Shown here piece after piece: positions 1,773-21,500 of a stretch of DNA of 52,787 bases. Position 1 is the first letter of the stretch. Every line of letters begins with the position of its first letter. The stretch comes from an uncultured Candidatus Saccharibacteria bacterium (GTDB lineage: Bacteria; Patescibacteriota; Minisyncoccia; GCA-002772825). The position numbers were made by a program, and so were the translations under genes. The notes beneath the pieces are model-generated. The model saw only the letters and a program-made list of their open reading frames with translations. It ran no database searches and had not been told where the DNA came from. The stretch spans positions 1 through 52,787 of the forward strand of contig CAYIGM010000002.1 of assembly GCA_964363045.1 (NCBI GenBank). The letters are read 5' to 3'.

Positions 1773-3374
1773 TTATTTCTCAACTTTATATACAACATTT
1801 TCTCCGTCAGCCGTTTCTTCAACCAATTCATACTTAAGAGACAACTTATCCTTTAAGCCGAGAAAGCATTCTCGAGAACATTTAAAAGCGTAAGCGTAGG
1901 ATGATAAAAAGATATAATTCGGAACTAATTCCGCGTTGCCAGCTCCTGAAAATTTAGAATAGCAATTTGAAGCATCTATATTCAGAAGCCCCTCCGGAAG
2001 ACAAGAACCGATTGACCAGGCATCTGTTTTGAAAGAAACCGTATTAGGAGTAATATTGGTAAAAAAAGTTTTATTTCTATAATTTTCAAGCATTGCCAAT
2101 ATATCCGATAATTTCTTATCATTGCTGAAATTGCCGGCCCATATAAAATATTTCCATCCGATAATAACAATCGCCAACAGCATTATGATTTTAAAAATAA
2201 AATTTTCCAAAAGAAAAATGTAAAAATCTTTATCGTGTTTTATTTTTTCAATCAAACCGTAAAATAAATCACCGACGGCCATTCCCAGAAAAATAACCAG
2301 AAAAGCGTAAAAAAATAAAGGATGATTGCCAATAGTCGGCAAGAAGACAATCTGCCATATAAAAACGGCCAAAAACAGAGGAATTATAAATTTTCTGTTT
2401 TTATAAATACAGCCTCGCCTGAAAATATAAAGAATAAAAGTAAAAATACCGCCTACGGCCAGTGGTATTTTAAACAAATAAAAAGGCCTGATGGCTCCTA
2501 ATAGATAACTGACCATTGGCGCCCGTTCGTTAGAACCCCACAAAACCATATTATGCGCCTGATAGAAATTTAAAAGTTCCTTTCTGGGAGGTATGCTGAA
2601 AAATCTATTTTGCGCCGTAAGCCATATATCCTGCAAAGCGATACTCGGCGTTAAGGCTGACATATTTTGCATTATATGGATAATTGCTCCGACAGAAACA
2701 GAAAGAAAGCAAAAAAAGAATAATCTCATATTTTTTTCAAAAATACCGAATAATAATTCCGAAATCAGCATAAAGCCGGCAAGCATATAATTCGCAAACG
2801 AAGCGATAAAAAATATAAGCGGCACAATAAAATATCTCTTCGGCATATTGCCATATCTAACCCACAAATAACCGAATAATATTGGAAAACTGAGAGAATA
2901 TTGATTATGGTCAACGAGACTTAAAAATCCGCTGAAATTAACAATTAAAAAGATTGAAGAAAAAACGGCGGCAGGCAAAGAGACCGATTCGCTCAAAAAT
3001 AAAAATAAAAAAGCGACTCCGCTTAAAGAAATCAATGAATAAAAAATTCTTGACTGAAAAACATTAAACCCTATTTTTATAAGAAACCCTTGAACAGCCG
3101 ATGGTAAAGACGGATTATGTGTATAAAATATAGGCTGTGAGTTTTTTTCAAAATCAGTTGAATAATCAGGAAGAAAAAAAAGTTTGACAAATCCTTTCAG
3201 CGCAAAATTCCTTCCGGCATTATACTCCAAAATAAAATCCTCTTGAGTGCCACCTGAAGCTAAAGAAATATCTTTATAAGAAAATACGAAATTAAAAATA
3301 TAAAAAATCCCGAAAATCAGAACGAGAATTAAAAACAAATTTTTTTTATTTAATATAGATTTCGCCATAAGCAT
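1773..3374 (-). CDS. Polytopic membrane protein, distant relative of the 112-1770 / 3346-4974 family
   Basis: 533-aa ORF, highly hydrophobic. FYTHNPSLPSAVQGFLIKIGF...SLISLSG parallels YYTHYPSGYLFPLGFLMEIGF...ILISLTG of the paralogs. Its stop is 2 nt from the convergent stop of ORF 112-1770. Confidence 0.7.
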   Translation of the reverse strand: MLMAKSILNKKNLFLILVLIFGIFYIFNFVFSYKDISLASGGTQEDFILEYNAGRNFALKGFVKLFFLPDYSTDFEKNSQPIFYTHNPSLPSAVQGFLIKIGFNVFQSRIFYSLISLSGVAFLFLFLSESVSLPAAVFSSIFLIVNFSGFLSLVDHNQYSLSFPILFGYLWVRYGNMPKRYFIVPLIFFIASFANYMLAGFMLISELLFGIFEKNMRLFFFCFLSVSVGAIIHIMQNMSALTPSIALQDIWLTAQNRFFSIPPRKELLNFYQAHNMVLWGSNERAPMVSYLLGAIRPFYLFKIPLAVGGIFTFILYIFRRGCIYKNRKFIIPLFLAVFIWQIVFLPTIGNHPLFFYAFLVIFLGMAVGDLFYGLIEKIKHDKDFYIFLLENFIFKIIMLLAIVIIGWKYFIWAGNFSNDKKLSDILAMLENYRNKTFFTNITPNTVSFKTDAWSIGSCLPEGLLNIDASNCYSKFSGAGNAELVPNYIFLSSYAYAFKCSRECFLGLKDKLSLKYELVEETADGENVVYKVEK

Positions 3375-4974
3375 TGTCGGTTAAAAATTCTCTTATAATT
3401 TTTACCTCTTGGTCATTGGCAATAATAATCGGCAAAAACGGATACTGGGAATGATTTTTCAATTTTATCAAATCATCCGCCAAATCTTTTTCATTTTTAA
3501 AAGATAAAATCGGCATACCGGAATAATATTCCGAAAATGGATCTGCTTGAGGATAACGATACGAACCGGCTTCATCCATCCTGAATACCACACCATCACG
3601 GCCTTGAGCCGCAGATTTCATATCTTGTCCGAATTTTATAATTTTTTCATCAACGGCATTATTCGGCCATTGTTTAACATACGCATAAGTTCTCTCCGCT
3701 TGCTTAAACCAAAGCAAACTGATTAAAATTAAAAACGCCACTCCACCCGCTTGGAAGCTTAGCTTCCAAGCGGGAAATTTTTTTATATTTTTTAAAATTA
3801 AATAAATTAAAACTGTTGAGGACGCCAAAAGCAAAGAAATAAATGGCGCCGCCTGCCTTGCCTGGTATGGGAAATAACCGGACGAAACGAGAATAAAAGG
3901 ATAAGCAAAACCGGAAACAGCTAAAAGCCCCAGAATTTCATTTTTTGGAAAACAATAAAAATTTTCAACCGCGCGCTTTTTTAAAACAGCAAACGCGGTG
4001 AATAAAATTACGATAATAGGAATAATAAACCGCGCGCGCAAATCTGTCATATATACCCACGGCGAGAAAATCGCTCTTGTGTGCTTCTCTAAAATACCCG
4101 ACCCGGGTCCGGTATTGGCACGCGCCCGAAAGGAACCATAAATATCAAACAAAGCGTCGTGAATCCCCAAATACCATAAATTCTGCAAAAGCTGAACAAA
4201 AAACGCCAAGACGGGCGCCATGGCAAAAATCAACCATCTTTTCCATAAAAATTTTCTTGTCATTATAAGATCAAGACCGACCAGCCAAACAAAGATAAAG
4301 AAAGTAGAATCGTACGAAGAACTGGCAAGGGTAAAATATAAAAACCAGATAAGAATATTATAAAATCTCTTCTTCTTATCATCAGAAACTCTATATACCC
4401 ATATACTTAAAAATAAAATTAAAAATCTAAATAAATCATCTACGGGCTGATTGGCTAAAGAATCCGCTATTCCTAAAAACATCGTCGAACTGGCATAATA
4501 CAAGACCGACAGAAAAGCGATTGTTCGCGTTGAAACAAGCGCAAATGCCACGTACATAAACGACAACCCGGCAAGTGATATTATTATCGCCAAAAATCTA
4601 AACCAGAATCTCGCGGAAACCCCGATTTTCATTAAAATTGCATACGGCAAAAGATAGCCGGCCGGGTAATGAGTATAATAAAGTCTGTTTCCAATAAGCT
4701 CGCCGGTTCGTATGCCATGAGCGTGTTGCCTCAAGTCCGGTTCATCAAAATAACGAACCGCTTTTGAATAACCAGTCGGTATAAAAAGAAACTTACTGTA
4801 AATAAATCCGTCATTCACCCAATGTTTGGAGCTCATCATCGTCTGCGCCGAACCAAAGCCCCAATCATCCCAAACATTTTCAGGTAAAGCCTTAACACCA
4901 AGATAAATAGCCAATATTAAAATAAAAATAATAAATAAAAAATGTGGTTTTAAAATTTGCCAGATTCGTCTCAT
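3346..4974 (-). CDS. Polytopic membrane protein, paralog B of the family
   Basis: 542-aa ORF. More than half of the N-terminal ~280 residues match ORF 112-1770 by eye. Its start overlaps the stop of the upstream GT by 4 nt. Confidence 0.75.
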   Translation of the reverse strand: MRRIWQILKPHFLFIIFILILAIYLGVKALPENVWDDWGFGSAQTMMSSKHWVNDGFIYSKFLFIPTGYSKAVRYFDEPDLRQHAHGIRTGELIGNRLYYTHYPAGYLLPYAILMKIGVSARFWFRFLAIIISLAGLSFMYVAFALVSTRTIAFLSVLYYASSTMFLGIADSLANQPVDDLFRFLILFLSIWVYRVSDDKKKRFYNILIWFLYFTLASSSYDSTFFIFVWLVGLDLIMTRKFLWKRWLIFAMAPVLAFFVQLLQNLWYLGIHDALFDIYGSFRARANTGPGSGILEKHTRAIFSPWVYMTDLRARFIIPIIVILFTAFAVLKKRAVENFYCFPKNEILGLLAVSGFAYPFILVSSGYFPYQARQAAPFISLLLASSTVLIYLILKNIKKFPAWKLSFQAGGVAFLILISLLWFKQAERTYAYVKQWPNNAVDEKIIKFGQDMKSAAQGRDGVVFRMDEAGSYRYPQADPFSEYYSGMPILSFKNEKDLADDLIKLKNHSQYPFLPIIIANDQEVKIIREFLTDNAYGEIYIK

Positions 4975-6053
4975 ATTTTCTTAAATAATTCAATAAATTT
5001 TTCCGCGCAATTTTCCCAAGAAAAATCACCGGCTCTCAAATCAGCCTTATTTACCAGCTCGTCTCTTAATTTTTCATCAAAAACCATCTTAGCCATAGCG
5101 GTAGCAATATCCTCGGGGTTTTTCGGGTCAACTAAAAGCGCGGCCCCGCCGGCCACTTCAGATAAAGAACTCCTGTCGGAAGTGATAACCGGCAAACCGC
5201 AAGCCATCGCCTCAAGCACGGGCATGCCAAAACCTTCAATCAAGCTTGGAAAAACGAGAGCTGACGCATTTTTATAAAGAAAAGAGAGTTGATTGTCACT
5301 GACAAATCCTAAAAAAATCACATCTTCTTTTAAATTATTTTCTTCAATAAAGCGTAATATCTCTCTATAATAAACATTATTGCCATTACCCGCGACAACA
5401 AATTTAAAATCGGATTCATTCTTTTTTTTGAATTCATAAAATCCCTTTATAATATTCAGAAGATTCTTCCTTTCTTTAATCACGCCGACATAAAGAAAAA
5501 AATTTAAAGGAACGGCAATCTTTTCCGACGGCAAAACGCATATTTTACTGAACCCGGGATATATCACCTCTATCTTCTTATGTGGAATATCAAACAATCT
5601 TATAATATCTTTCTTTGTCGCTTCAGAAATAGAGACAATATTATCCTCCCGCCTTAAAGCCAAGCCATTCATCTTATACAATAAAAAATTATTTATTCTG
5701 TTTCTAAAGCCTTCCGGCTTAAAATAAAGATAAGCAAAATCAAGAGCAACCACAATGGATTTCTTAGGGTGAAAAAAAATCGGCATAACAGGGGTATTAA
5801 AAATATAAATATCAGCTTTGGGCGCGAACAAAAGCCCTATCTCCATCCAGAATCTCCCGAAACCCAAAATTTCAATTCTCCAATTTGATGTCGTAAATTC
5901 CGGCATTATTTTGTGATTCTTTTTTAGATAGACTATATACTCATTTTCTTTATCGTTTTCAATAAGATATCTCGTCAAATCAAAAATATAACGGCCTAGT
6001 CCGGCTGGCTTCCCTTCTCCGTATGGGTGCAAGATTATACCTATTTTTGCCAT
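4971..6053 (-). CDS. Glycosyltransferase, GT4 (GT-B fold) family
   Basis: C-terminal EGFGMPVLEAMACGLPVITSD...LVDP motif (E-x7-E type) typical of family 1/4 glycosyltransferases. Confidence 0.85.
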   Translation of the reverse strand: MAKIGIILHPYGEGKPAGLGRYIFDLTRYLIENDKENEYIVYLKKNHKIMPEFTTSNWRIEILGFGRFWMEIGLLFAPKADIYIFNTPVMPIFFHPKKSIVVALDFAYLYFKPEGFRNRINNFLLYKMNGLALRREDNIVSISEATKKDIIRLFDIPHKKIEVIYPGFSKICVLPSEKIAVPLNFFLYVGVIKERKNLLNIIKGFYEFKKKNESDFKFVVAGNGNNVYYREILRFIEENNLKEDVIFLGFVSDNQLSFLYKNASALVFPSLIEGFGMPVLEAMACGLPVITSDRSSLSEVAGGAALLVDPKNPEDIATAMAKMVFDEKLRDELVNKADLRAGDFSWENCAEKFIELFKKI

Positions 6054-6056
6054 ATA

Positions 6057-6659
6057 TTATTTTTTAATTTCCAATTCCCAAATTAATAATTTTACCGGCA
6101 AAAACAAAGAAAGATATTGGTCATAAAATTTTGAATATCTATAAATAAATTTTTTAAAAATTCTCACAAAAAAATTATCTGAATCCTGCGGCCACCCATA
6201 CCAAAATCCCATTTTTTCAAATTTATTGTCAGTATAACCATAATCGGCAAGCGAACTTTTTTTATTTAAAAAATAATCAAGCGAACTTGCCGTGAAAAAA
6301 TGTTTATGTGTGGGGTCTATAAAAGCGTCAATTGAACGAAAATAAGGAACGGCTATAACCGCCCGCGAGCCGTTTCGGCCTATTCGCCAAACTTCATTAA
6401 GAAAATCAACAATATTATCTATGTGTTCCAAAACATTATGCGCGAAAATCAAATCAATGCTATTATCTTCAAAAGGCCATAACACAGAATCTAAATCGCA
6501 TACGATATCAACTGCCGGCATTTTTAGCTTATCAACGCCTACCGCCCCCTTAAGTTTAGAATTACCGCAACCTAAATGCAGGACATCTTTACCAGAAAAA
6601 ATATCTTCTTTGGTAATGCCTTTTTTAGTATAAATTTTCAAGGTGAAACTTTTTTTCAT
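6057..6659 (-). CDS. Class I SAM-dependent methyltransferase
   Basis: VLHLGCGNSKL glycine-rich SAM motif, DLIFAHNVLEHI and GSRAVIAVP blocks (Methyltransf_11/23-like). Confidence 0.75.
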   Translation of the reverse strand: MKKSFTLKIYTKKGITKEDIFSGKDVLHLGCGNSKLKGAVGVDKLKMPAVDIVCDLDSVLWPFEDNSIDLIFAHNVLEHIDNIVDFLNEVWRIGRNGSRAVIAVPYFRSIDAFIDPTHKHFFTASSLDYFLNKKSSLADYGYTDNKFEKMGFWYGWPQDSDNFFVRIFKKFIYRYSKFYDQYLSLFLPVKLLIWELEIKK

Positions 6660-6663
6660 AATC

Positions 6664-7803
6664 TTATAAATCTCGCGTATCCATTTTGATAAATTTTATA
6701 ATGCTACCGGCTCTTTTGTTCCAGGAATAATTTTTTGAATAACTATGCGCTTTTTCCGCTTTATCTTGGGATTCTTTTTTATTTTCCAAGACAAATTTTA
6801 TTTTTTCCGCCAATTTTTCCGCATTGTCCGGTTCCACCAAAAAAGCATTTTCTTCATTCAAAATATCCAAAAAAGACGGCAGTTTGGGGGCGATAATGGG
6901 CCTGCCTGATGCCATATATTCAAAAAGTTTCAAAGGCGAAGTGTAATACTTTGAAATATCGCTTTTAGCGGTGCCTGTCAAAATAAGAATATCCGCTGAT
7001 TTAAGCCATAAAGGAATTTCTTTATACGGCCTCAAGCCGATAAATTTCATATTTTTAAAATTATATTCCTCTTGGCTTGACTCGCCGACTAAATACAAAC
7101 AAATATCGTCTCTCAAAGATTTTCCGGCCTCAATAAGGGTATTGACTCCTTTCCACTTTAAAAAACTGCCGGCATAAACAATAATTTTCTTATCAAGTGG
7201 TAAGCCCAATTTTTTTCTGGCCTCTTGTTTTTCAATATTTATATCAAAATCCTTCAGGCAAACACCGTCCGGAACATATAAAATTTTATTTTTAGAGATA
7301 TTATATTTAACGAAAAGTTCATCTCTGTAATTTTTTGTAACCACAATAATGCCTTTTACTTTTTCAAAAGCTTTTTTATACCAATCAAAATTACCCGGCT
7401 TTATGTGCGTCTCCCAAAAAATGGGCTTTTTCAAAAAAAATGAAAGCGGAACAACCATTTCTCCTCTTGTGTAAACTGAATAATCACCGTCTTTTGCCAA
7501 AAAATAAAAAAACAACGAAACAGAAAAAGTAAAAACCTCAAGAAAAAACACCAACGGAATACCGACAAACATCAAGTCTATAGCGGGTAATTTTTTAATT
7601 TTAAAGACAGGCTCAATATTATAATAAGAAAAAGGATCATCTTTAATAGAATTAAATCTCCACGGCAAAATAAGGGTCAAATCGGCCCCCTCCTTGGCCA
7701 AAGCTTCGCACATCTTCAATATTTGCACCCCGTGAGCTTTCTGCGTAGGAATACGGGCATTTGCCACATAAAAAATCTTAAATTTTTTCTCCAAACCGGC
7801 CAT
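6664..7803 (-). CDS. Glycosyltransferase, GT4 family
   Basis: SPLKLFEYMASGRPIIAP motif. The ORF track starts at TTG 7806, but ATG 7803 overlaps the upstream TGA (TGATG junction), so ATG is preferred. Confidence 0.8.
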   Translation of the reverse strand: MAGLEKKFKIFYVANARIPTQKAHGVQILKMCEALAKEGADLTLILPWRFNSIKDDPFSYYNIEPVFKIKKLPAIDLMFVGIPLVFFLEVFTFSVSLFFYFLAKDGDYSVYTRGEMVVPLSFFLKKPIFWETHIKPGNFDWYKKAFEKVKGIIVVTKNYRDELFVKYNISKNKILYVPDGVCLKDFDINIEKQEARKKLGLPLDKKIIVYAGSFLKWKGVNTLIEAGKSLRDDICLYLVGESSQEEYNFKNMKFIGLRPYKEIPLWLKSADILILTGTAKSDISKYYTSPLKLFEYMASGRPIIAPKLPSFLDILNEENAFLVEPDNAEKLAEKIKFVLENKKESQDKAEKAHSYSKNYSWNKRAGSIIKFIKMDTRDL

Positions 7804-9194
7804 CAATCAATTTTAACCTGATTTGATAAATTTCCCAAACCCATTATAAAATTCCATATTTCCGCAATCGCCAGCGTAAAAAATACTATAAGCAACGGCT
7901 CAATCGGTATTCTAAATCTTGCGTGCCCTTCAAATCCGACAATCAACGAAAAATACGCCATTGTCAAAATTGCAAAAATTCCAACAATAAAATTTCTTCT
8001 TAAATATCCCAACGCCCACAAAATCCCCAACCCCGATTTTAATGCGGTCAAAAAATAACTTACAAAGAAAAAAATTATAAAGAGTATCCCTGATTCAAGA
8101 ACAGATTCCCATAAACCGTTAAAATCAAGAGCGAAAACTTTTTGGGCTATATTGATATTAGGCAATTTTAAATCAAACGCCTCACGCAAAGTAAGCAACA
8201 TTCCATTATTCAAAAAATAGACAGGGGTTGCCGAAATATGAAAAAAAGCATAACTCAAAGGATGCGCTAAAATCTTCTCCTTAGCCAGACGCGCGAGTTC
8301 TGTTGAAGCTGTTATATTATACATTGCGTCTTTGCCGTATTTTTCTTCAATATATTTTAAAATTTCGCTATTTTTCTCATCCCGAGAGACGCCGTCTTTA
8401 TACGCCTGCCATGGCCCGAAATAACTTACATACATATGATATCTTCCCACGGAAGACAAAAATAATTCCCCGAAATGAATCTCATTGCGTATCAGCCAAG
8501 GCGACAAAACAAAAACAAATGCCGCAATCATTAAAACAGACATCATAAATCTTTTCTTAATTTCTTCTTTAAAAAACAATAAGAGAACAAAAATCGGAAT
8601 AATTATAAAAAACTGGGTTACCGGGCGCGTAAGAACAGATAGGCCTAAAAAAGCTCCGACTAAAACAACATTTTTAAAATTAAAATTTATCTCCTTTGAT
8701 ATAATTTTCAAAAACAATAAAACAAACAGGCTAAAAAAGAAAGTAAAAAGAATATCAGCCATTGCCATGCTTGAAAGATAGGCTTTGTAAGGAAGACAGG
8801 CAAAAATTATTCCTGAAAAAACAGCTATATTAAGACGGTGAGTTATCGTCATCGCTATTTCAAAAACAATAATTGCCGTAAGGGCGCTTATTAATATATT
8901 AAGCAATGTGGCTAAAATAAAACCGCCGGTAAGAAGATAGCTGACAGTCAAAAAGAACGGGAAAAGCGGAGTTCGCGCTGAATCAGTAATATAAGGCGCT
9001 GATTGAGACAAAGAAAAAGAATGGCGCTCCGCCAGATTTATGGCAATACGGCCGTATTCCGCCTGATCAGTCCCCTGAACAAGCGGATTAAAAAATTGTT
9101 GTCCGCGCGAAAAATACAGATAAAAAAACATCAATAGATTCGCAATAAGCGCCACTGCAAATAAAATAATTTTTATTTTATTATTTTTTTTCAT
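7803..9194 (-). CDS. GT-C fold membrane glycosyltransferase, ArnT/PMT_2 (GT39/83)-like
   Basis: 463 aa with many TM segments. GTDQAEYGRIAINLAE in the first loop after TM1 resembles the acidic loop of ArnT/PMT-type enzymes. Confidence 0.65.
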   Translation of the reverse strand: MKKNNKIKIILFAVALIANLLMFFYLYFSRGQQFFNPLVQGTDQAEYGRIAINLAERHSFSLSQSAPYITDSARTPLFPFFLTVSYLLTGGFILATLLNILISALTAIIVFEIAMTITHRLNIAVFSGIIFACLPYKAYLSSMAMADILFTFFFSLFVLLFLKIISKEINFNFKNVVLVGAFLGLSVLTRPVTQFFIIIPIFVLLLFFKEEIKKRFMMSVLMIAAFVFVLSPWLIRNEIHFGELFLSSVGRYHMYVSYFGPWQAYKDGVSRDEKNSEILKYIEEKYGKDAMYNITASTELARLAKEKILAHPLSYAFFHISATPVYFLNNGMLLTLREAFDLKLPNINIAQKVFALDFNGLWESVLESGILFIIFFFVSYFLTALKSGLGILWALGYLRRNFIVGIFAILTMAYFSLIVGFEGHARFRIPIEPLLIVFFTLAIAEIWNFIMGLGNLSNQVKID

Positions 9195-9970
9195 ATAATT
9201 TTTTTAATAAAATTATAAAAAACGACGCTAAAACCGAGCTTGCCTTTAAATTCAGCTAAACCGCAATTCTTATGTATAAAATTCCGCTTAAGCTTAAAAA
9301 TATCGTCATTTTGACCCGCCAAACCTTCATTTACTGTCACCGCCCCCAGAAATCCATCCTTTTTCAAAAATTCAATCTGATTTTCATTATAACTCCCTTT
9401 TGGATAAGCAAAAACAAACAGCGACTTAGAAATATTATGATTTATAATTTCTTTAGACATTTTAACTTCCCGGTAAAAATCTTTATCATCCATATCAGCC
9501 ATCTTGCGCGGATGAGTATGCGAATGAAACCCGAAATCAATAAGTCCGGAATTTTCCATCTCTTTAATCTCCCGCCAATTTAAAATATCCAGGCCATTGA
9601 ATTTCCCTCCAATATAAAAAGTGGAAAGAAAAACAGTGGCTGGAAAATTATTTTCTTGAAGAACGGAAAAGGCCTCGGAATAATTATCCTTATACCCGTC
9701 ATCAAAAGTTATCACTACTGTTTTTGACGAAATTTTTTCTTTATTTTTTATCTTTTCTATAATATCCGCGAGTTTTGCGACTTTATAATTCTTATCCTTC
9801 AAATACCTCATTTGACGCGCAAAATTATCCGGCGCGACATTAAACAAAAAATCATTTTTGCCGATTGAATGATACATCAAAATAGAAGCTCCGGGAGGAT
9901 TTATAAAATAAAATAAAATATTCATTAAAGAATAAATCCATTCTTTAATTTTATTATTCCTCAAGAACAT
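9191..9970 (-). CDS. Polysaccharide deacetylase (NodB homology domain, CE4)
   Basis: VVITFDDGYKDNY (TFDDG motif) and HSHTHP metal-binding motif. Confidence 0.8.
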   Translation of the reverse strand: MFLRNNKIKEWIYSLMNILFYFINPPGASILMYHSIGKNDFLFNVAPDNFARQMRYLKDKNYKVAKLADIIEKIKNKEKISSKTVVITFDDGYKDNYSEAFSVLQENNFPATVFLSTFYIGGKFNGLDILNWREIKEMENSGLIDFGFHSHTHPRKMADMDDKDFYREVKMSKEIINHNISKSLFVFAYPKGSYNENQIEFLKKDGFLGAVTVNEGLAGQNDDIFKLKRNFIHKNCGLAEFKGKLGFSVVFYNFIKKII

Positions 9971-11027
9971 AAGCCAACTTGTCTATTAATTTATCCAAAC
10001 CATGATTTTGAACTATAATATCCCTCATTTTTTTCTTTATAACATTCTTTTCTTCAAGAGAAAACTTTATTAATTTCTCAATCTTAGCTGCAAGTTCAAT
10101 GGCATTTCTTTCTTTAAACATCAGCAAATCTCTTAAATGCGCGTCAAATATTCCGCTAAAAGCTTCACTGGAAACAAGGACTAACAAACCGCAAGCCATA
10201 GCCTCAAGGGTCGTCTTGTCAAAACTTCCCGTCTTTGTCAGATTAACGAAAATATCATTATCATTATATATTGCCGGTGTTTGACTATTAGGTATTTTAC
10301 CCAAAAATAAAACATCATCTTCAAGCCCTAATATTCTTATTTTCTCTTTGACTTGATTGAAATAATTCATGTCCTTTTCCGTCGGTCCGCCGACAATATT
10401 AAGATGAAAATTATAATCTCCATTTTTTAGAATACCGAGCGCTTCAATCAACACATTAAGATTTTTAACCGGACTTATCCTGCCTAAATATAAAATCTTA
10501 AATTTATTATCTTCATCTTTTAATTTACCGGCTATCGGATTAAATTTATCTATATCTATCCCTTGCTGCAAAACAACAAGTTTTTTCATATTAAAAGGAA
10601 AAGCTTCTTTAACCGAGGTCACAACTTTATCGGTAAAAAAGACGGCTATCCTCAATTTCAAACTGTCAAGAAAATGCGCATACCACAAGACAACTTTCTT
10701 ACCCCAAAATTTCCATAGCGGACCGGCTAATATGACATATTCCGGATTCATATGGACAAAAACACGATCATAGTCATTTCTTAAAAGCCAAATATGTCTA
10801 TAAAATTTTAAAATATATCCGAGCTTATTCGGTTTCTTATAATCCGGAAATTCCTCCTTTCCAAGAGAATGAACTTCAACATTAATGGGTAAATTATATT
10901 CCCCTTTATAAAGACAGATAACGTGTATAAACTCAAACTTAAGAGTTAATCTCTTTATCCACTCATGATAAACTCCCAAAAGGTCGTCATTTTTATCAAC
11001 TTTCTGGGTTATAAATAAGAGCTTCAT
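9954..11027 (-). CDS. Glycosyltransferase, GT4 family
   Basis: FDKTTLEAMACGLLVLVS motif and GT-B layout. Its start overlaps the Elp3 stop by 4 nt. Confidence 0.8.
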   Translation of the reverse strand: MKLLFITQKVDKNDDLLGVYHEWIKRLTLKFEFIHVICLYKGEYNLPINVEVHSLGKEEFPDYKKPNKLGYILKFYRHIWLLRNDYDRVFVHMNPEYVILAGPLWKFWGKKVVLWYAHFLDSLKLRIAVFFTDKVVTSVKEAFPFNMKKLVVLQQGIDIDKFNPIAGKLKDEDNKFKILYLGRISPVKNLNVLIEALGILKNGDYNFHLNIVGGPTEKDMNYFNQVKEKIRILGLEDDVLFLGKIPNSQTPAIYNDNDIFVNLTKTGSFDKTTLEAMACGLLVLVSSEAFSGIFDAHLRDLLMFKERNAIELAAKIEKLIKFSLEEKNVIKKKMRDIIVQNHGLDKLIDKLAYVLEE

Positions 11028-12655
11028 ATTAATGATTTTACCATATACCCGCCATCAAGCCGATAGCCCAATTTCCGATAATAATCCCTGACACCGACGC
11101 CTGAAATTACGGCCATTTTCTTATATCCGGCCTCTTGGGATATTTTTTCAGCTTCTTTAATGAGGGAACTGCCAAGCCCGCGATGCTGACTCTGTATCCC
11201 CTTTTCTGCCACAGGCACCATTCTGCCGTAAGTATGAAGCTCCCTGACAATAGCGCTTCCGCGGAGCGCGGGGGGTGCTTCTTTTTTGTCAGAAACTCCG
11301 GGCAGAAAAAGCCTTAAAAAGGCAACCAGTTTGTCCGCGCTCCGGTCATTCCAACTTAAAAATACTTCTTTGCCGACAGAAGTCCGGTATTCTTCTTTTT
11401 CAAATTTCAACTTCTCAATTTGAATCTTTCCCTCTCTTATCTCCCTACATCTGATGCATTTGCATTTCCAATTATTTTCTTTTTGGTCTCTTTCAAGAAT
11501 CTGCCTTAAATTGGAAATCTTGCTTCCGGCGACAATATATTCTGACGGAATATCGCGAATGACCCGAATTAATCTGACGAATTTAGGAAGATTCTTTTTC
11601 ACTTCTATCAGAAGCCTCGCCAGCTTCTTATCGTCATAAGTTTTGAATTTTCCTTTCTGCCATAATTTATACAAATTGCTGTTTTTAAGAACAACGCACG
11701 GATAAATCTTCAGCATATCGGGGTAAAACAGCGGATTGGAAAAAAGCTCCTTAAACATCCAGACATCTTTCTTATAAGTGCTGGTGTATAAATTCGGCAT
11801 CATATGATAAACGATTTTAAATCCGGCCAAACGAAGAAGAGCTGTCGCTTTGGAGACCTCGCCTATTCCCGCTCCGCGCGCGTTGGCCGATAAAACATCT
11901 TCATCAAGATTCTGCACGCCTATCTCCACCTTCGTCACTCCAAACTTTCTCATCCTCTCTATTTCCGCTAAATTTATATAATCCGGTCTTGTTTCAACAG
12001 ACAATCCTATAATCCTGCATTTTGCGCTTTCATTGATTTTTTGCAATCCATTCAACGGTTTGGTATTTTTCTTGATTCCTCTTTTTTTCTTATAATTATT
12101 GCAAGCCCTGAAAATCTCCGATATGAATTCTTCCTGATATTTATGCGGATAATAACTCCAGGTTCCGCCTATTATAATAATTTCAATCTTATCTATCGGA
12201 TGGCCGTTTAATTCTAACGCCCGAAGCCTCGCAATAATCTGCTTATACGGGTCAAAATTATTCCTCAAAGCGCGACTGGCGGCAGGCTCTTTGGAAAGAT
12301 AACTCTTGGGCATCTTTTTCTCTGTCGGGCAATAAATACATCTACCCGGACAAGAAAAAGGTTTGGTCAGAAGCGAGACCGAGACTATCCCCGAATTGCT
12401 TTTTGTCTTTATTTTTCGCAATAACAATTCCGCTTCAAGAGACCTTTCCTCTTCCCCTTTTTCAACCATATCTTTATATAAAGCCAAAACCTCCGCGTTA
12501 ACCGGCAATGGCTTTGTTTTAAAGATATGCCCAGCGGGCCTGAAACTGATTTTCTTTTTTATCTCTAATATACGCTCATAAAGCGCATTATTTTTGGAAA
12601 TGACCCTCTTGAGCCTCTCTAAATCTGCTTCTGTTTTAAGATGTTTAAAAAGCAT
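11024..12655 (-). CDS. elp3: Elp3-type tRNA U34 carboxymethyl-modification enzyme (radical SAM + GNAT acetyltransferase)
   Basis: FSCPGRCIYCP radical-SAM CxxxCxxC cluster. The central domain is Elp3-like (VETRPDYI, VTKVEIGVQ). C-terminal GNAT motif QHRGLGSSLIKEAEKI. The 543-aa length fits Elp3. Confidence 0.85.
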   Translation of the reverse strand: MLFKHLKTEADLERLKRVISKNNALYERILEIKKKISFRPAGHIFKTKPLPVNAEVLALYKDMVEKGEEERSLEAELLLRKIKTKSNSGIVSVSLLTKPFSCPGRCIYCPTEKKMPKSYLSKEPAASRALRNNFDPYKQIIARLRALELNGHPIDKIEIIIIGGTWSYYPHKYQEEFISEIFRACNNYKKKRGIKKNTKPLNGLQKINESAKCRIIGLSVETRPDYINLAEIERMRKFGVTKVEIGVQNLDEDVLSANARGAGIGEVSKATALLRLAGFKIVYHMMPNLYTSTYKKDVWMFKELFSNPLFYPDMLKIYPCVVLKNSNLYKLWQKGKFKTYDDKKLARLLIEVKKNLPKFVRLIRVIRDIPSEYIVAGSKISNLRQILERDQKENNWKCKCIRCREIREGKIQIEKLKFEKEEYRTSVGKEVFLSWNDRSADKLVAFLRLFLPGVSDKKEAPPALRGSAIVRELHTYGRMVPVAEKGIQSQHRGLGSSLIKEAEKISQEAGYKKMAVISGVGVRDYYRKLGYRLDGGYMVKSLI

Positions 12656-12662
12656 AATAAAT

Positions 12663-12692
12663 TTGGAAAAATTCCCGCAATTTAGCTATACT
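12663..12692 (+). promoter_or_regulatory. Candidate sigma-70 promoter for the Trm9-like gene (leaderless)
   Basis: TTGGAA (12663-12668), 18-nt spacer, TATACT (12687-12692). The ATG at 12700 is 7 nt after the -10 box and has no SD. Confidence 0.4.
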
Positions 12693-12699
12693 ATAAACA

Positions 12700-13395
12700 A
12701 TGGAAGAAGAAATGGCAAAAAAAATTTTAGATGAATCAATCGCCAATTACAATAAAATAGCGGAAGATTTTTCTTATACTCGAACGGCATTTTGGAATGA
12801 ATTAAATTTCATAAAAGGGCTTATAAAAGAAGGCGACAACATATTGGACTTAGGATGCGGAAACGGCCGTTTTTTTGAACAACTGAAAGGTAAAAATATC
12901 AAATATACCGGCAGTGACGCATCAGAAAATTTGCTGAAAATAGCGAAAGAAAAATATGGAAAAGAAGCGAAATTCATTCACACCGACACATTAAATTTGC
13001 CGTTTAAAGACAATTCATTTGACATAATAATATCGTTTGCCGTTTTACACCATATTCCATCTAAAAAATTCCGAGACCAATTCATCAAAGAAGCGCGCAG
13101 AGTATTGAAAAATGATGGAATTTTAATTATCTCCGTATGGAACCTGTGGCAAAAAAAGTTTATTCCCATTATCATAAAATACGCCCTTTTAAAATTATTC
13201 AGACTTTCTAAATTTGATTTTAAAGATATTTATCTTAATTTCGGAAAATATAAAAAGGCCCGCTTCCTGCATGCTTTTACTGAAAAAGAATTGGGTCAAC
13301 TGCTGGCAAAAAACAGACTGGCCGTAAAAAAATTAGAAAAAATAAAAAGAAAAAGCGGCTACTCAAATCTTATCGCAATTGCCAGAAAGATTTAA
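12700..13395 (+). CDS. Trm9/ALKBH8-like SAM-dependent methyltransferase (candidate tRNA cm5U34 methyl esterase-forming enzyme)
   Basis: YNKIAEDFSYTRTAFW, DLGCGNGRF, DTLNLPFKDNSFDIIISFAVLHHI, ISVWNLWQ and RFLHAFTEKEL match the block order I recall for yeast Trm9. It lies divergent from elp3. Confidence 0.6.
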   Translation: MEEEMAKKILDESIANYNKIAEDFSYTRTAFWNELNFIKGLIKEGDNILDLGCGNGRFFEQLKGKNIKYTGSDASENLLKIAKEKYGKEAKFIHTDTLNLPFKDNSFDIIISFAVLHHIPSKKFRDQFIKEARRVLKNDGILIISVWNLWQKKFIPIIIKYALLKLFRLSKFDFKDIYLNFGKYKKARFLHAFTEKELGQLLAKNRLAVKKLEKIKRKSGYSNLIAIARKI

Positions 13396-14537
13396 GAAAC
13401 GCAATCCTCCCACAACTTCTTATAAGCATTCAAGTATTCTTGCTTATCAAACAAAACAGCAGACATATATTCAGCGCTAACGACAAAATCATTAAAAAGC
13501 AGCCTATCGCGAATTATTTTAAAAAGAACTTTTTTTAGTTTTTCTTCATCGCCGACCGGCACCACAAATCCGCTATAACCGTCTCTTATTATCTCACCGG
13601 CAAGTCCGACATCAGTCATAATTACGGGGCAAGAAGCCGTCACAGCCTCTATAACAGTCCTGCCGAAACCTTCATAATTTGAAGTGAGAAGAAAAACGCT
13701 GGCTGTCTTATAATACGAAATCAAGTCGTCGCTCCACGGCTCAAAAATTATATTAGCTTCCATCTTCCTGGCTTTAGCTTTAAGCTTTTTCTCTTTCGGT
13801 CCGGCACCCACAATAACAAGACCTGTCTTGGGGTATTTTTCCAAAATATCCTTCATAACATCAATTGCCAAAGGAATATTTTTTTCAACAGTAAGGCGTC
13901 CGGCCATAAGAATTATAAAATCAAATTGCGGATATTTTTTGCGAAGATTATCTTTAATTGGCGTTTCTCGTATCTTTTTTACATCAACAAAAATAGGCAA
14001 AATTTCTATATTATAAACTTTAAATTTTTCTGATACGGATTTTTTTATCCTAAGAGAAACCGCTCTGATACAATTCGCGCGAGGAATCAAGAATTGAGCG
14101 ATAATAAATCTGATGCGATTTAACAGAGACTCTCTTTTAAAATACGGGGATAGAAAATCAGTATGAATTTGTATTTGCAGTTTAATCCCTGTCTCTCTTC
14201 TTATCAACCAGCCGACTAAACCCGTTTCAAACGGGTCCTGGCTAGTGATAAGCGAATCATCAATGACAAATTTAAAATCATAAATAATCTTCTTCCCGAT
14301 ATTTATCGCGTCTTTAATATAAAACCACCTACTGCGCGAATTTGTCGGATAAATCCAAATATTATCAGCTATTCTTTGCTTCTCTATTTTTGATTCTTGA
14401 TTCTTGATTCTTTTATTAAACACTATCACATGGAGCTCTTTCACTAATCCGCCGTAATCAATCATACGGCTTCTTACTTCAGAGCCTTCTTCAAATATCA
14501 ATCTATCGCTTGAAATCATTAAAACATTTTTTATCAT
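13392..14537 (-). CDS. Glycosyltransferase, GT4 family
   Basis: EGFGRTVIEAVTASCPVIMTDVGLAGEII motif. Its stop overlaps the convergent stop of ORF 12700-13395 by 4 nt. Confidence 0.8.
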   Translation of the reverse strand: MIKNVLMISSDRLIFEEGSEVRSRMIDYGGLVKELHVIVFNKRIKNQESKIEKQRIADNIWIYPTNSRSRWFYIKDAINIGKKIIYDFKFVIDDSLITSQDPFETGLVGWLIRRETGIKLQIQIHTDFLSPYFKRESLLNRIRFIIAQFLIPRANCIRAVSLRIKKSVSEKFKVYNIEILPIFVDVKKIRETPIKDNLRKKYPQFDFIILMAGRLTVEKNIPLAIDVMKDILEKYPKTGLVIVGAGPKEKKLKAKARKMEANIIFEPWSDDLISYYKTASVFLLTSNYEGFGRTVIEAVTASCPVIMTDVGLAGEIIRDGYSGFVVPVGDEEKLKKVLFKIIRDRLLFNDFVVSAEYMSAVLFDKQEYLNAYKKLWEDCVS

Positions 14538-14540
14538 AAA

Positions 14541-15695
14541 TTATATTAATATTTTAATCGTCTCATTTATCATTATCTCTCCTGAAAATTCTCTTATTTT
14601 TTCTTTGGCATTTTGAATTAAAGTATTTCTCAATTTTTCATTACGCAACAGTTCTAAAATAACCCATTTTATTTCTTCTTTGTTGTTATATTCAACCAAA
14701 AGACCGTCCTTTCCGTCTTGTATAAGCTCCGGATTTCCTCCAATATCAGTTGCCACAACAGGAATACCGCCCGCCATAGCCTCGAGCAATTGATGCGAGA
14801 ACCCCTCGTAAGCCGTATTCAAAATGAAGATATCGGAAGCTTTCAAATAAGCGCGCAGTTCTTCGTGAGGGAGCCTGCCAGTCATTATCACCTCATTTTC
14901 AAGACTAAGATTCAAAATTTTATTATTTAAATTTTTCTTTTCCGAACCATCGCCAATAATCAAAAGTTTCGCATCAGGATAATCTTTTAGAATATCAGGC
15001 ATAATCTCAATAAGGGAGCCAAATCCTTTCCACGGAACCAGCCGGCCGATTGAGACGATAATATTTCCATTGATACCGTATTCCCGTCTTATTTCATTCT
15101 TATCTTCAAGCACGGAAGACGGACTAAAAGAATTATAAACAACAAAAATTTTGCTTTCGGCGACACTCCATCCTAATAAAATTTTTTTTAAATAATTGCT
15201 GGGCACAATCACTTTAAAGGCATGCTGGGCAACATACTTTTGTATCCTCCTCCTCATCTCGGTAATTAAATCATACTTTTCTTCCTGAAATTTTTCCAAA
15301 CTTGGTAATTGAAGACCGGTAATTGAAGATTTCTGGCAATACTGTTCCCAAGCGTAATCGCCCACAACTTTAAGTACAAACTTTTTTCTTAATATCCTTG
15401 AAGCTAGATAGGCCGGCAAGCCGACACTCACCGGGTCTTGCGCGAAAATCACATCAGTATTTCTCCCTTTTTTTAACAGCATTAAAAAATAAATAAAATG
15501 ACGCAATATTTTCGGCAAATTTCTGACTTTACCGAAATTTACAATATAGACGCTCACCCCATGCAGAGGCAAGTGGTCAAATAATTGCTTTGAATAAGTC
15601 GCCGGTCCGCCGATATCGGGAGGATAAAGGCCTGTCGCAATTAAAATCTTCTTTGAGGGAGAGTGTTCGCCGACTTTTAGAATATCTCCTTTCAT
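14541..15695 (-). CDS. Glycosyltransferase, GT4 family
   Basis: EGFSHQLLEAMAGGIPVVATDIGGNPELIQDGKDGLLV motif. N-terminal GGP motif (DIGGPATY). Confidence 0.85.
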   Translation of the reverse strand: MKGDILKVGEHSPSKKILIATGLYPPDIGGPATYSKQLFDHLPLHGVSVYIVNFGKVRNLPKILRHFIYFLMLLKKGRNTDVIFAQDPVSVGLPAYLASRILRKKFVLKVVGDYAWEQYCQKSSITGLQLPSLEKFQEEKYDLITEMRRRIQKYVAQHAFKVIVPSNYLKKILLGWSVAESKIFVVYNSFSPSSVLEDKNEIRREYGINGNIIVSIGRLVPWKGFGSLIEIMPDILKDYPDAKLLIIGDGSEKKNLNNKILNLSLENEVIMTGRLPHEELRAYLKASDIFILNTAYEGFSHQLLEAMAGGIPVVATDIGGNPELIQDGKDGLLVEYNNKEEIKWVILELLRNEKLRNTLIQNAKEKIREFSGEIMINETIKILI

Positions 15696-18599: not shown

Positions 18600-21500
18600 T
18601 TAAAATAAGCCTTCCGGGCTGGTGCTAACGGTATTGCCTATAAAATTTATTAAATCAGCGGTAAAATTTGAAACTGCATCTGAAAGAATGCCGAGAATAT
18701 TATTCTCAAACAAAAGATTGGTTAAAGTGGTGGAAGAATTATAGATAGCCAACGCCGCCATTGAGCTGTATCTCATTGTTACCAAATTATGGTCTTTAAA
18801 TTCAGTATCTGATATCTCCACATTGTTTGAATTCTGAATTCTTAATCCAAATGGAAAATTAGCAAAAAATAAAGCGTTTTTTATGCTGACTGGCGACTCG
18901 TCGGCATAAATGCCACCCAGTGATGTTGACCTGGAATAATCCGAACCGGCATAACGCACGGTAAAGCCATTTCCGCTTATAGAGCCTGTTTTTGAGATTT
19001 CAATTCCTCCCCACACTGGGGCTGATAAAGGAGTAGTTGTGCCATCAGCAATAGTTGCTGGAAAAATTGTATCATCATAAAGACTGGTAAAAACAATGTC
19101 ATCCGATTTTTCTCCATCAATCACAAGATTCCCGCCTACTTTCAATACCGCATATAATGATTTCATAACCGCGCCTTTTTCAATCACAAGAGCGGAATCT
19201 TCCGGCACGGCGATATCCGTGCGGTCCATTACATAAGGAAGGGTATCCGCCGCCAAAGTCGTGGTGGAACCGGCAACCGCAATATCGCCGTAAATGACAA
19301 TCCCGTTTATCCTGTTGCCGGAAGCCGAATTGCCGGTAAATCGAGGAAGATTGCCAGTGGCAAAAATAGCTTCATCCGTGTTTGAATTAAAAATATTAGA
19401 ATCAACAGCACCTGGACTTTCTTTAATACTAAGCCCGCGTTCATTATTCTCAATAATATTATCTTTAAATAAGATATTTCCGCTATCAACAAGAACCGCT
19501 GAATCTGTTCCGGAATAGACATATTCATTTTTATTATTGTCCCTAAAGATATTACCCGTTACGGAAGCATCAGAATTCGCCAATTCCAAACCGCGAAAAT
19601 CCGAGTATTCAAAGATTGAATTATTAATAACAACTGAAGAATCAACGACTCTTAAATCGGCGTAAGGATAATAATTCCCGAATCCATAAGTATTATAAGT
19701 CAAGCCGCCATAGCGAAAAATGGTATTATCTAAAACAGACCGACCTGAAATATCACTATCAATATCAACCCCAAACCAGGAACCGGGTCGAGCGGAAGTT
19801 GAGGTGGCATCATTATTAGTATCGCCTCCGTATTCATCATCATAAAAACTGGTAAAAATTATCGGTTCAGCCAGCGTGCCATTTGCGATAAGACTTGCAT
19901 TTTCAAATCTAAAGCCAGCTTTATTATAAAATTTAATCACTACACCCGGTTCAATAGTAAGACTTGACCCATTTTTAAAAACTTTCCACTGATTATCTAC
20001 GATATACGGACTTTTCGCTTTCGTTAATACGATATCTTCTGAAATATCCGAATGATAACCGTCAATAAGAGAAGAAAGACTGTTTTTTGACTTCGGTGTT
20101 CCTGTAATATTATTCCCATCAACATTTTTGCCATTTATCATAAGACCGTTATTCGTGCCCCAATTTTCCGTATCAATACCAACAATAAGCGAATCTATCC
20201 GCTCCATTGTTTGATAACTGGAAGCTGAACCGCCGTGCCAGCCGAGGGGATTCGTATCCGGCATCTTATCAATCGTCGTAGTCGCTTCCCCTTCTTTTTT
20301 ATAAGAGAGTATCAAGGTTTCGCCAGCATTTGAAAGACCTGACCCGCTCCCCGCCCCGCTAAACGGCGCTATCAAATCGGCTTTTATATCGCTGACAGTC
20401 TCGTCATCGCTTCGCTCTATCAGATAATAATCTTTCGCTTTTATCACTCCGGAAAGAGGAATGTAAGGCGCGCCGTCCTCCGCTTCAAGAATCCAATTAT
20501 CAAAAGGGATGTCATAATCAGTATTGTTATAAAGTTCAATCCACTCATCGCTAGAATGGCCTTGAGTGCCAGCCCAAGCCACTTCATTTATAACGACAGC
20601 GGAATTGAAAATTGAAACAGTTTGCGTACTGGTGGCGGAAATATTGCCCGCTTTATCGCGAGCGGAAACACCAAACGAAAAAATTGAATTATTAAGCGCA
20701 TAAACAACGGTGGATGTGGCTGTCGTTGTGGCAAATACGCCGTTAGTATCGGTAATGAAATAATCCAAATCATCAGCAGTTGAAGACCATGAAATATTTA
20801 AAATGGCGCTTGAAGTAAGACAACCCGCGGAGACGAGGGAATTTTCGCATTCTAAAACAAAAAGTGAAATATCGGGCGCTTCCGTATCCGCATCAATAAT
20901 TAAAATCTTACCCGCTGAAGTTGCCTTATCTTCAATACTGGCGCTTACAGACTGAACTTGAGAATCACCAGTTCCCACTCCGGATTGAGGGTCAGATGAT
21001 GTCGCAGGAGGCGCGCCGCCGCCAAAGCCGGGTGCGGGAATTGAAGTTGGCTGAATTTTAGACGCTGATGAAAGAGCCTGAATCGTATTTTGCGTGACGG
21101 CAGGCGCTAGCGCCTGGCTATTTTGAATATTTGCTTGATTACTTAAATTATTCGCTTGAGTTTGAAGCGCCTGAACCGCCAATTGGGCTTGATTCAGCTG
21201 ATATTGAAGAGAGATTAGATTATTACTGGTGGCACTGGACAATACCGGCGCCGCAACAGGCTGATTTGCATTATTTACAGAGTTTGCGACAGCAGAAACA
21301 TTTTCCTGACTTGACGGTTGAATAGCATTTATAACGGATGATGTCTGCGCGATAGATGTGCCCGGGAAGAGATTTTTGATGCCTGAAACAGCGTTATTAT
21401 AAATATTTATAGCGCTATTTATCACGCCTATAATCTTATTAACCGGAGATTTAACACTTGAACTGTCACTTATCGGAATTTTTAAATTATTGATATTATT

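Follow-up and report, generated by a model that had tools for sequence, protein, structure and literature searches.

Does a bacterium encode its own version of the two-enzyme pathway that builds 5-methoxycarbonylmethyluridine (mcm5U) at the wobble position of transfer RNA (tRNA)? The question is raised by two adjacent genes in a 52,787 nt stretch of DNA (hereafter, the window; contig CAYIGM010000002.1, positions 1 to 52,787) from an uncultured Candidatus Saccharibacteria bacterium. The first gene, elp3 (11024..12655, minus strand), encodes a radical-SAM/GNAT enzyme of 543 amino acids (aa) that is predicted to form the carboxymethyl group on tRNA uridine 34 (U34). The second, a trm9-like gene (12700..13395, plus strand), encodes a 231 aa class I S-adenosylmethionine (SAM)-dependent methyltransferase of the Trm9/ALKBH8 family. 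The two genes are divergent and separated by a spacer of 44 bp (12656-12699). Both open reading frames (ORFs) had been described in the original prediction, and their coordinates, strands, lengths and the 44 bp gap agree with our analysis. We estimate a probability of roughly three in four that the pair constitutes a two-step tRNA wobble-uridine module, most likely converting U34 to 5-carboxymethyluridine (cm5U) and then to mcm5U. Judged by the families of its proteins, the pair appears to be a bacterial version of a known two-enzyme pathway, and not a new type of system.

The linkage of the two genes is the strongest evidence that their functions are paired. In a forward search, the methyltransferase profile was run against one genome per GTDB species, and Elp3 was sought within 6 kb of each of the 80 loci obtained. 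Elp3 was found in 67/80 loci, or 67 of the 76 that could be tested, and in 62 of the 67 it was the directly adjacent upstream gene on the other strand, the arrangement seen in the window. For four of the 13 negative loci the upstream sequence was too short for a decision, and several more were only partial matches. By record label, the 67 positive loci comprised approximately 29 Patescibacteria, 21 Anaerolineae/Chloroflexota, five unclassified bacteria, a few other labels and one archaeal locus. The patescibacterial loci spanned the Lloyd-, Portnoy-, Kuenen-, Komeili-, Dojka-, Woese- and Gracilibacteria, WWE3, Paceibacterota and others. At the archaeal locus (L037, labelled Crenarchaeota, with Korarchaeota proteins as the nearest database relatives) elp3 and the methyltransferase gene are adjacent on the same strand. 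The reverse search used 80 metagenome loci picked by Elp3 similarity alone, six of which were untestable; a methyltransferase was present in 65 of the 74 testable loci, divergent and upstream in 64 of them. The two-way linkage of these genes across phyla is thus a direct observation, and the expected conservation of their adjacency in relatives was borne out in both search directions. The accompanying statement that Elp3 is confined to a few bacterial lineages did not hold, as the pair was found throughout the Patescibacteria and in the Anaerolineae/Chloroflexota. The methyltransferase family itself contains 1,341 clusters at 50% identity (E <= 1e-30), and some of its members are annotated as TRM9 or ALKBH8 by the Joint Genome Institute (JGI).

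To look for a further conserved gene (Trm112, Kti12-like or a thiolase), every ORF of the first 80 loci was clustered (81 regions in total); no other family occurred in more than nine of them, which indicates that the pair is a self-contained module in varying contexts. Small recurring neighbour families, judged by reading their sequences, included a LOG-like protein, a NUDIX hydrolase and membrane proteins. In the window, the 3' end of elp3 overlaps the next minus-strand gene, encoding a GT4 glycosyltransferase, by 4 nt (11024-11027), and it had been proposed that elp3 is the first gene of a long glycosyltransferase operon. The 4 nt overlap and the overlapping minus-strand run are real, but the GT4 neighbours of the window, like the Elp3-to-GT4 gene order, recur only in the close relatives L003 (Lloydbacteria) and L082. 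The glycosyltransferase operon is therefore a local arrangement and not part of the module, and a functional role of elp3 within it was rejected.

The same neighbourhood suggests an explanation in which the 231 aa protein is a generic methyltransferase of small molecules or glycans (UbiE-like, or a sugar O-methyltransferase) belonging to the glycosyltransferase cluster, and its adjacency to elp3 is incidental. The gene does lie within a run of GT4, deacetylase and PMT-like genes, and in Pfam and NCBIfam its product matches generic families best (Methyltransf_11, and UbiE/MenG with a score under the cutoff). In two family members the methyltransferase is fused to a WecG/TagA domain, and in 9/161 loci the next gene after it encodes WecG. 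However, approximately 88% of testable loci show the link to Elp3, whichever gene is used for the search and across phyla, whereas the GT4 genes of the window recur in two loci and WecG in 6%. In addition, the Trm9-specific substrate residues are conserved, and a fungal Trm9 profile favours the family over generic methyltransferases by >40 bits. We consider a generic enzyme highly improbable, and incidental adjacency is already largely refuted by the linkage statistics.

Returning to the wobble-uridine module, we examined the identity of each partner. Sequence comparison identifies the product of ORF 11024-12655 as a full-length Elp3 in which the Fe–S cysteines, zinc cysteines and acetyl-CoA motif are intact. 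The protein scored 545 bits against NCBIfam TIGR01211 (cutoff 350), with residues 48-542 covering model positions 31-522 of 522, and it matched PF04055 Radical_SAM (1.5e-12) and PF16199 Radical_SAM_C (1.1e-19); the GNAT model PF00583 was sub-threshold on its own (18.5 bits versus 20.7). The Elp3 architecture anticipated in the original prediction was therefore recovered by PF04055, PF16199 and, over the full length, TIGR01211. Alignments to PDB entries ran end to end, including Methanocaldococcus infernus MinElp3 (6ia8, 1.4e-112), Dehalococcoides mccartyi DmcElp3 (5l7j, 3.9e-106) and eukaryotic Elp3 structures. DmcElp3 and MinElp3 have the same radical-SAM and KAT (lysine acetyltransferase) architecture, Fe–S and zinc cysteines and acetyl-CoA motif as the window protein.

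The radical-SAM [4Fe–4S] motif CPGRCIYC (12329..12352, minus strand) contains the conserved triad C102/C106/C109, which was kept in 58/58 aligned sequences covering the site; the spacing is CX3CX2C, versus CX4CX2C in MinElp3. The linker zinc site CKCIRC (C398/C400/C403; 11447..11464, minus strand) is a hallmark of bacterial and archaeal Elp3, and its cysteines are conserved in 56/61 bacterial homologues; a three-cysteine zinc site in the Elp3 inter-domain linker has been described previously (PMC6367351). The KAT (GNAT) active-site region (11078..11245, minus strand) includes R471-E472-L-H474, QHRGLGSSL (490-498) and Y525/Y526, and its acetyl-CoA motif is kept as QHxGxGxxL across the 61 homologues. 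MinElp3 residues K150, K266, Q461 and Y517 are required for tRNA-induced acetyl-CoA hydrolysis (Lin et al. 2019). Three of these, K150, K266 and Y517, correspond to K156, K280 and Y525 of the window protein, all of which are invariant in an alignment (A2) of 13 bacterial Elp3s, the window protein included.

The window Elp3 begins with a long basic extension of approximately 100 residues (annotated as residues 1-85; 12401..12655, minus strand) of the type typical of archaeal and eukaryotic Elp3, with 20 lysine or arginine residues among the first 90. The median number of residues preceding the Cys motif was 98.5 in the 61 bacterial Elp3s. The N-terminal region of MinElp3 is needed for recognition of tRNA and the anticodon stem–loop, and is missing in DmcElp3 (PMC6367351).

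Elp3 was historically proposed to be a protein acetyltransferase, and a bacterial homologue could have a role outside tRNA: it might acetylate proteins or small molecules, or carry out a different radical-SAM reaction, and the methyltransferase would take part in the same process. The sub-threshold GNAT match and the glutamate at the position of MinElp3 Q461 fit such a role. Nevertheless, the Dehalococcoides and archaeal enzymes hydrolyse acetyl-CoA only if triggered by tRNA (PMC6367351). The window Elp3, which shares 40-57% identity with the remaining 12 bacterial Elp3s of A2, keeps the cluster, zinc and acetyl-CoA features together with the tRNA-binding N-terminal extension, and its partner protein is related to a tRNA methyltransferase. 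A non-tRNA function is in our judgement improbable.

The assignment of the partner to Trm9 depends on which comparison is used. The best Pfam match of the 231 aa protein was PF08241 Methyltransf_11 (2.6e-26), with further matches to Methyltransf_25 and Methyltransf_31, all generic. NCBIfam matches to UbiE/MenG, BioC and others fell far under their cutoffs, and no equivalog cutoff was passed. Neither library can decide Trm9 identity, because neither has a Trm9-specific model. An AlphaFold2 (AF2) model of the protein had a Rossmann-type fold (predicted local distance difference test score, pLDDT, 93), and a Foldseek search of the PDB with this model returned 3sm3 first and Trm9 14th. A single-sequence phmmer search of the PDB placed Trm9 merely fifth, a rank that we attribute to an artefact, since the crystal construct is N-terminally truncated and full-length Trm9 scores highest.

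Profiles built for the families themselves separated the candidates more clearly. A family hidden Markov model (HMM) built from 40 sequences ranked Yarrowia lipolytica Trm9, whose crystal construct is without the N-terminal helix, third in the PDB at 77.6 bits, below two proteins of unknown function (81.0 and 80.3 bits). The same HMM gave full-length Saccharomyces cerevisiae Trm9 95.3 bits, above every PDB chain (best 81.0). The yeast sequence used here is consistent with the numbering of 16 residues that Létoquart et al. 2015 report, matches 5CM2 (Yarrowia) at 4.5e-71 and is 99% identical over 279 aa to 'Trm9p [S. cerevisiae]'; the yeast Trm9 strings given in the original prediction proved to be genuine when matched to Trm9p and Yarrowia Trm9. 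By BLASTP, the window methyltransferase and yeast Trm9 are 33% identical over 135 aa (E = 4e-20), far more than chance would give. In the reciprocal direction, the window protein reached 81.7 bits with a fungal-Trm9 HMM and the bacterial family had a median score of 81.8, while the five closest PDB methyltransferases scored 22-37. An archaeal-homologue HMM gave medians of 166 bits for the bacterial set and 138 for eukaryotic Trm9, and at most 80 for the outgroups.

In a neighbour-joining (NJ) tree, the window protein fell within a bacterial group that was joined to Trm9 of archaea and eukaryotes, and the PDB methyltransferases branched outside; eukaryotic Trm9 was monophyletic (100/100). A grouping of the methyltransferase with archaeal and eukaryotic Trm9 thus receives moderate support from a simple tree method. 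Both the reciprocal profile searches and the tree put the 231 aa protein nearer to Trm9 than to generic Methyltransf_11 proteins, as had been proposed.

Yeast Trm9, used as a query against the PDB, matched only Trm9 and 3ege. The latter chain, 3ege_A from Anabaena variabilis, is annotated as a 'putative methyltransferase from antibiotic biosynthesis pathway' and is the sole non-Trm9 chain that yeast Trm9 matches below 1e-5. It has an N-terminal YNxIxxxYSQTR motif and an HH motif in common with Trm9, and its position in the tree was unstable. The protein may be a distant Trm9-related bacterial enzyme.

The residues on which yeast Trm9 depends provide a finer comparison. Alanine substitution of R29, D72, H116, W145, W168, R241, Y243 or N271 confers zymocin resistance in yeast; four of these eight substitutions abolish activity and four reduce it at least ten-fold (PMC4678810). 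The corresponding residues of the window protein are R28, D73, H118, W147, F181, R188, L190 and N223. Six are identical to yeast (R29, D72, H116, W145, R241 and N271), W168 is replaced conservatively by phenylalanine, and Y243 is lost. Y18, F25, H115 and H244 of S. cerevisiae Trm9 (ScTrm9) are likewise conserved.

Residue frequencies were counted in an alignment of 76 methyltransferases with S. cerevisiae and Y. lipolytica Trm9. All of the peptides quoted in the original prediction are present in the translations. The N-terminal Trm9 signature YNKIAEDFSYTRTAFW (12748..12795, plus strand) aligns Y17/F24/R28 with ScTrm9 Y18/F25/R29 (Y in 70, F in 66 and R in 70 of the 76); R29 is needed for full activity of the yeast enzyme and has been proposed to position the cm5U carboxylate (PMC4678810). 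SAM-binding motif I, LDLGCGNGR (residues 49-57; quoted as DLGCGNGRF), and the acidic D73, equivalent to ScTrm9 D72, occupy 12844..12924 (plus strand). Within this region D50/G52/G54/N55/G56 are invariant or nearly so, and D73 is aspartate in 74/76; the yeast D72A protein does not bind SAM (PMC4678810). In VLHHIPS (13042..13062, plus strand), H117/H118 correspond to ScTrm9 H115/H116 and are histidine in 73/76 and 75/76 sequences, respectively. The H116A substitution inactivates yeast Trm9, as does W145A, and W145 has been proposed to stack on U34 (PMC4678810); its equivalent is W147 in VWNLWQ (13135..13152, plus strand; W in 71/76), a motif in which Q151 also matches yeast Q149.

Towards the C-terminus, DIYLNF and RFLHAFTEKEL (13225..13293, plus strand) contain F181 at the W168 position, R188 (equivalent to R241), L190 at the Y243 position and H191 (equivalent to H244). 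At the W168 position, 61 of the 76 sequences have W, 11 have F and two have Y, and F181 keeps the aromatic character of a residue proposed in ScTrm9 to stack on a nucleotide adjoining U34 (PMC4678810). Arginine is found at the R241 position in 70/76 and histidine at the H244 position in 68/76. Finally, N223 (13366..13368, plus strand) is the equivalent of ScTrm9 N271 and is asparagine in 48/76; N271A strongly lowers yeast activity, and N271 has been proposed to read uracil O2/N3 (PMC4678810). A further quoted block, LNLPFKDNSFDIIISFAVLHHI, is also present in the methyltransferase translation.

The chemistry that we infer for the pair, on its putative tRNA targets, follows that of its characterized relatives. 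Elp3 would act alone, without other Elongator subunits, and would bind tRNA with the help of its basic N-terminal extension. Its [4Fe–4S] cluster would cleave SAM to give a 5'-deoxyadenosyl radical, which would convert acetyl-CoA bound by the GNAT domain into an acetyl radical; addition of this radical to C5 of U34 would yield cm5U. A radical-SAM/acetyl-CoA mechanism of this kind has been described for archaeal and Dehalococcoides Elp3 (PMC6367351, PMC13315578). The 231 aa Trm9-family methyltransferase would then use SAM to methyl-esterify the cm5U carboxylate, giving mcm5U, or 5-methoxycarbonylmethyl-2-thiouridine (mcm5s2U) instead if a 2-thiolase also acts. As modelled for yeast Trm9, R28 and H118 would position the carboxylate, W147 would stack on the base and N223 would read the uracil.

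Both enzymes would be co-expressed from the common 44 bp promoter region. This divergent intergenic region (12656..12699) probably serves as a shared bidirectional promoter, with promoter-like matches on both strands: TTGGAA-18-TATACT on the plus strand, ending at 12692, and TTGCCA-17-TATAGT on the minus strand, ending at 12690, each being a consensus match only. The -10 boxes of the two matches overlap each other. Such overlapping matches fit co-expression of elp3 and the methyltransferase gene.

Several observations weigh against the proposed pathway. Pfam, NCBIfam and Foldseek do not separate the methyltransferase from generic class I enzymes. The outgroups for the profiles and the tree were limited to five partial PDB sequences, and the NJ bootstrap for Trm9-like proteins versus all five outgroups was 41/100, rising to 84/100 when either placement of the short 3ege fragment is accepted. 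Approximately 12% of testable loci have no partner gene nearby. In Elp3, the acetyl-CoA-binding residue Q461 of MinElp3 is replaced by E472; this glutamate is invariant in all 13 bacterial Elp3s of A2, and the change appears to be a conservative, lineage-wide substitution. In the methyltransferase, Y243 is replaced by L190, at a position that is variable in the family (V in 26, Y in 22, A in seven and other residues in the remainder of the 76 sequences), and the yeast Y243A protein has about 10% activity and gives zymocin resistance (PMC4678810). The Trm9 enzymes of eukaryotes and Haloferax depend on Trm112 to be soluble and active, and a search of low sensitivity, with a pattern and a YcaR probe, detected no ORF resembling Trm112, either in the window or, at 160 loci, in the 4-6 kb around the pair. 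At two positions where hydrophobic residues contact Trm112, the window protein has polar ones (N47 and K68).

The requirement of Haloferax Trm9 for Trm112 was reported in 2018 in a paper which noted that nothing was known of bacterial Trm112 orthologues (PMC6144793). The Trm112-interface residues of the window methyltransferase are only partly retained, and it is therefore possible that the enzyme would act independently of Trm112. The interface comparison is not discriminating, because the retained residues belong to a motif common to many Methyltransf_11 proteins. The 'complete' mcm5U pathway of the original prediction has thus not been established, with no Trm112-like partner found near the pair.

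These considerations bear on a variant in which the Elp3 and Trm9-family module is genuine and its end product or its requirements differ: the methyltransferase could act on 5-carboxymethyl-2-thiouridine (cm5s2U) or on another Elp3-dependent intermediate, a Trm112-like activator could be encoded elsewhere, or the final nucleoside could be something other than mcm5U. The loss of Y243, the phenylalanine at the W168 position and the partial retention of the Trm112 interface are all compatible with this variant. The pathway intermediates are also unsettled in yeast and Haloferax, as 5-carbamoylmethyluridine (ncm5U) accumulates in yeast trm9 mutants and no cm5U was seen in a Haloferax trm9 deletion. 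On the other hand, R29, H116, R241, N271 and W145, which have been proposed to grip the carboxylate of cm5U and its uracil ring, are all conserved, and use of the same substrate is therefore the simplest reading. We regard a different product or requirement as unlikely, and favour conversion of U34 to mcm5U via cm5U.

How far this chemistry might extend is a more speculative matter. It is a tentative proposition, and one that we find rather doubtful, that Patescibacteria (the candidate phyla radiation, CPR) and Anaerolineae decode split codon boxes with a wobble modification of archaeal/eukaryotic type, mcm5U or mcm5s2U, made by a minimal module of Elp3 and Trm9 without Elongator subunits or Trm112, and that this system replaces MnmE/MnmG. 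No mnmE, mnmG, cmoA or cmoB gene lies within the 52.8 kb window, and a literature search on MnmE/G in connection with Patescibacteria found nothing relevant.

Among characterized systems, the eukaryotic Trm9–Trm112 enzymes (S. cerevisiae, Y. lipolytica 5CM2 and the human ALKBH8 domain) share the class, block order and functional residues of the window methyltransferase. The yeast residues held in common are Y18, F25, R29, D72, H115/H116, W145, R241, H244 and N271. S. cerevisiae Trm9 is the best-scoring characterized relative (95 bits with the family HMM), and the predicted reaction, cm5U34 to mcm5U34, is the same. The window protein differs from yeast Trm9 in its length of 231 aa, without the yeast low-complexity insertion, and in the Y243-to-L and W168-to-F replacements. 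Unlike ALKBH8, it has no AlkB or RRM fusion and is encoded head to head with Elp3.

In archaea, clustering of the Elp3 and Trm9 genes of Sulfolobus solfataricus was pointed out in 2008 (PMC2584109), and Haloferax volcanii Trm9–Trm112 was shown to make mcm5U in 2018 (PMC6144793). The archaeal systems (Haloferax HVO_1032 and the Sulfolobus cluster) likewise combine a prokaryotic stand-alone Elp3 with a small Trm9 homologue of approximately 210-230 aa. The pair described here differs in its bacterial host and in its divergent arrangement, conserved in many members of the Patescibacteria and Chloroflexota, in contrast to the same-strand genes of archaeal locus L037.

The bacterial MnmE–MnmG enzymes, which make 5-carboxymethylaminomethyluridine (cmnm5U) and 5-methylaminomethyluridine (mnm5U), and CmoA/CmoB/CmoM, which make uridine 5-oxyacetic acid (cmo5U) and its methyl ester (mcmo5U), are functionally analogous in that they decorate C5 of U34 to tune decoding. 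CmoM likewise methyl-esterifies a wobble-uridine carboxylate. The MnmE–MnmG and Cmo enzymes are nevertheless unrelated to the pair, and rely on folate/FAD/GTP-dependent aminomethylation or on carboxy-SAM, as opposed to radical-SAM/acetyl-CoA carboxymethylation.

In the literature, DmcElp3 was called a 'rare example' of a bacterial Elp3 in 2019 (PMC6367351). Elp3 is established in 'some bacterial clades', with 'numerous bacteria' mentioned in 2026. A 2020 review listed cm5U and mcm5U in Archaea and Eukarya only, and cmnm5U, mnm5U and 5-aminomethyluridine (nm5U) in Bacteria (PMC7694415). Our full-text search, with most subscription journals outside its coverage, found no report of a bacterial Elp3–Trm9 cluster, or of Elp3 or Trm9 tied to Patescibacteria, CPR or Chloroflexi.

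Around the pair, the window carries a long minus-strand cell-envelope cluster (1773-11027 and 13392-15695) with 4 nt gene overlaps. Downstream of elp3 the minus-strand genes are tightly packed and encode GT4, a polysaccharide deacetylase, a PMT_2-like protein, further GT4 enzymes and others; at the opposite side, the 3' end of the methyltransferase gene overlaps a convergent GT4 gene by 4 nt. Within the cluster, a second, weak class I methyltransferase-like ORF (6057-6659, minus strand, 200 aa; PF08241 1e-08; 30 bits with the Trm9-like family HMM) plausibly encodes a sugar or lipid methyltransferase. In the Lloydbacteria locus L003, an extra, unrelated methyltransferase-like ORF (5240-5920, minus strand) lies between the Elp3 and Trm9-like genes. 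The two fused family members, P0442 (520 aa) and P0480 (469 aa), are Trm9-like methyltransferases that continue, by fusion or by read-through, into a WecG/TagA/CpsF glycosyltransferase domain at the C-terminus. The nine loci with a WecG-like gene directly downstream of the methyltransferase gene on the same strand are L022, L023, L025, L032, L101, L120, L131, L140 and L161. As L023 belongs to the Gracilibacteria, the fusion might reflect read-through under an alternative genetic code.

The rest of the window is ordinary chromosome, encoding L7/L12, L10, FtsK, RecA, EF-P, SSB, S6, TatD, MetRS, GlyRS and IleRS. GC content ranges from 34 to 45%, and the window contains no tRNA genes or Rfam matches. 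The closest named relatives are Parcubacteria/Patescibacteria, and the same Elp3 protein is also encoded on a metagenome contig from Hainich groundwater.

Other genes in the window showed features of independent interest. The IleRS (49239-52763, minus strand; TIGR00392, 897 bits) contains a PF00300 His_Phos_1 domain (1.6e-32) inserted at residues 498-662, where it splits the synthetase match in two, and such a histidine-phosphatase insertion is unusual for a class I aminoacyl-tRNA synthetase. A peptidase-like gene (40697-41977, minus strand) approximately 5.5 kb from efp (34602-35180) gave sub-cutoff matches to the YfmH/YfmF 'EF-P 5-aminopentanol modification-associated' families (138 bits versus 250). 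An IS200/Y1-transposase-like ORF (22972-23676, minus strand) matched PF01797 at 32.5 bits, with the REP-associated tyrosine transposase model below cutoff. Two long minus-strand ORFs, of 1301 aa (18600-22505; sole recognized domain, Lamin Tail Domain) and 1183 aa (24721-28272; no recognized domain), may encode large surface proteins of a kind that is frequent in CPR genomes.

To date, bacterial Elp3 has served as a structural model, in the form of the Dehalococcoides enzyme, and no downstream enzyme has been described. The conserved pair in two large bacterial lineages predicts a different wobble-uridine chemistry in a considerable share of bacterial diversity, to which the ultra-small CPR organisms with their otherwise reduced translation apparatus belong. 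The pair offers small, partner-free versions of the medically relevant ELP3 and ALKBH8/TRMT9B for mechanistic work, and gives a direct test of Trm9 function without Trm112. If the more speculative proposition is correct, in which the pair works without Trm112 and replaces MnmE/MnmG, mcm5U-type chemistry would be described for the first time in Bacteria, and no earlier Trm9 would be independent of Trm112. Such a system would also bear on the age of the Elp3/Trm9 pathway, which would either pre-date the archaeal–bacterial split or have moved between domains as a unit.

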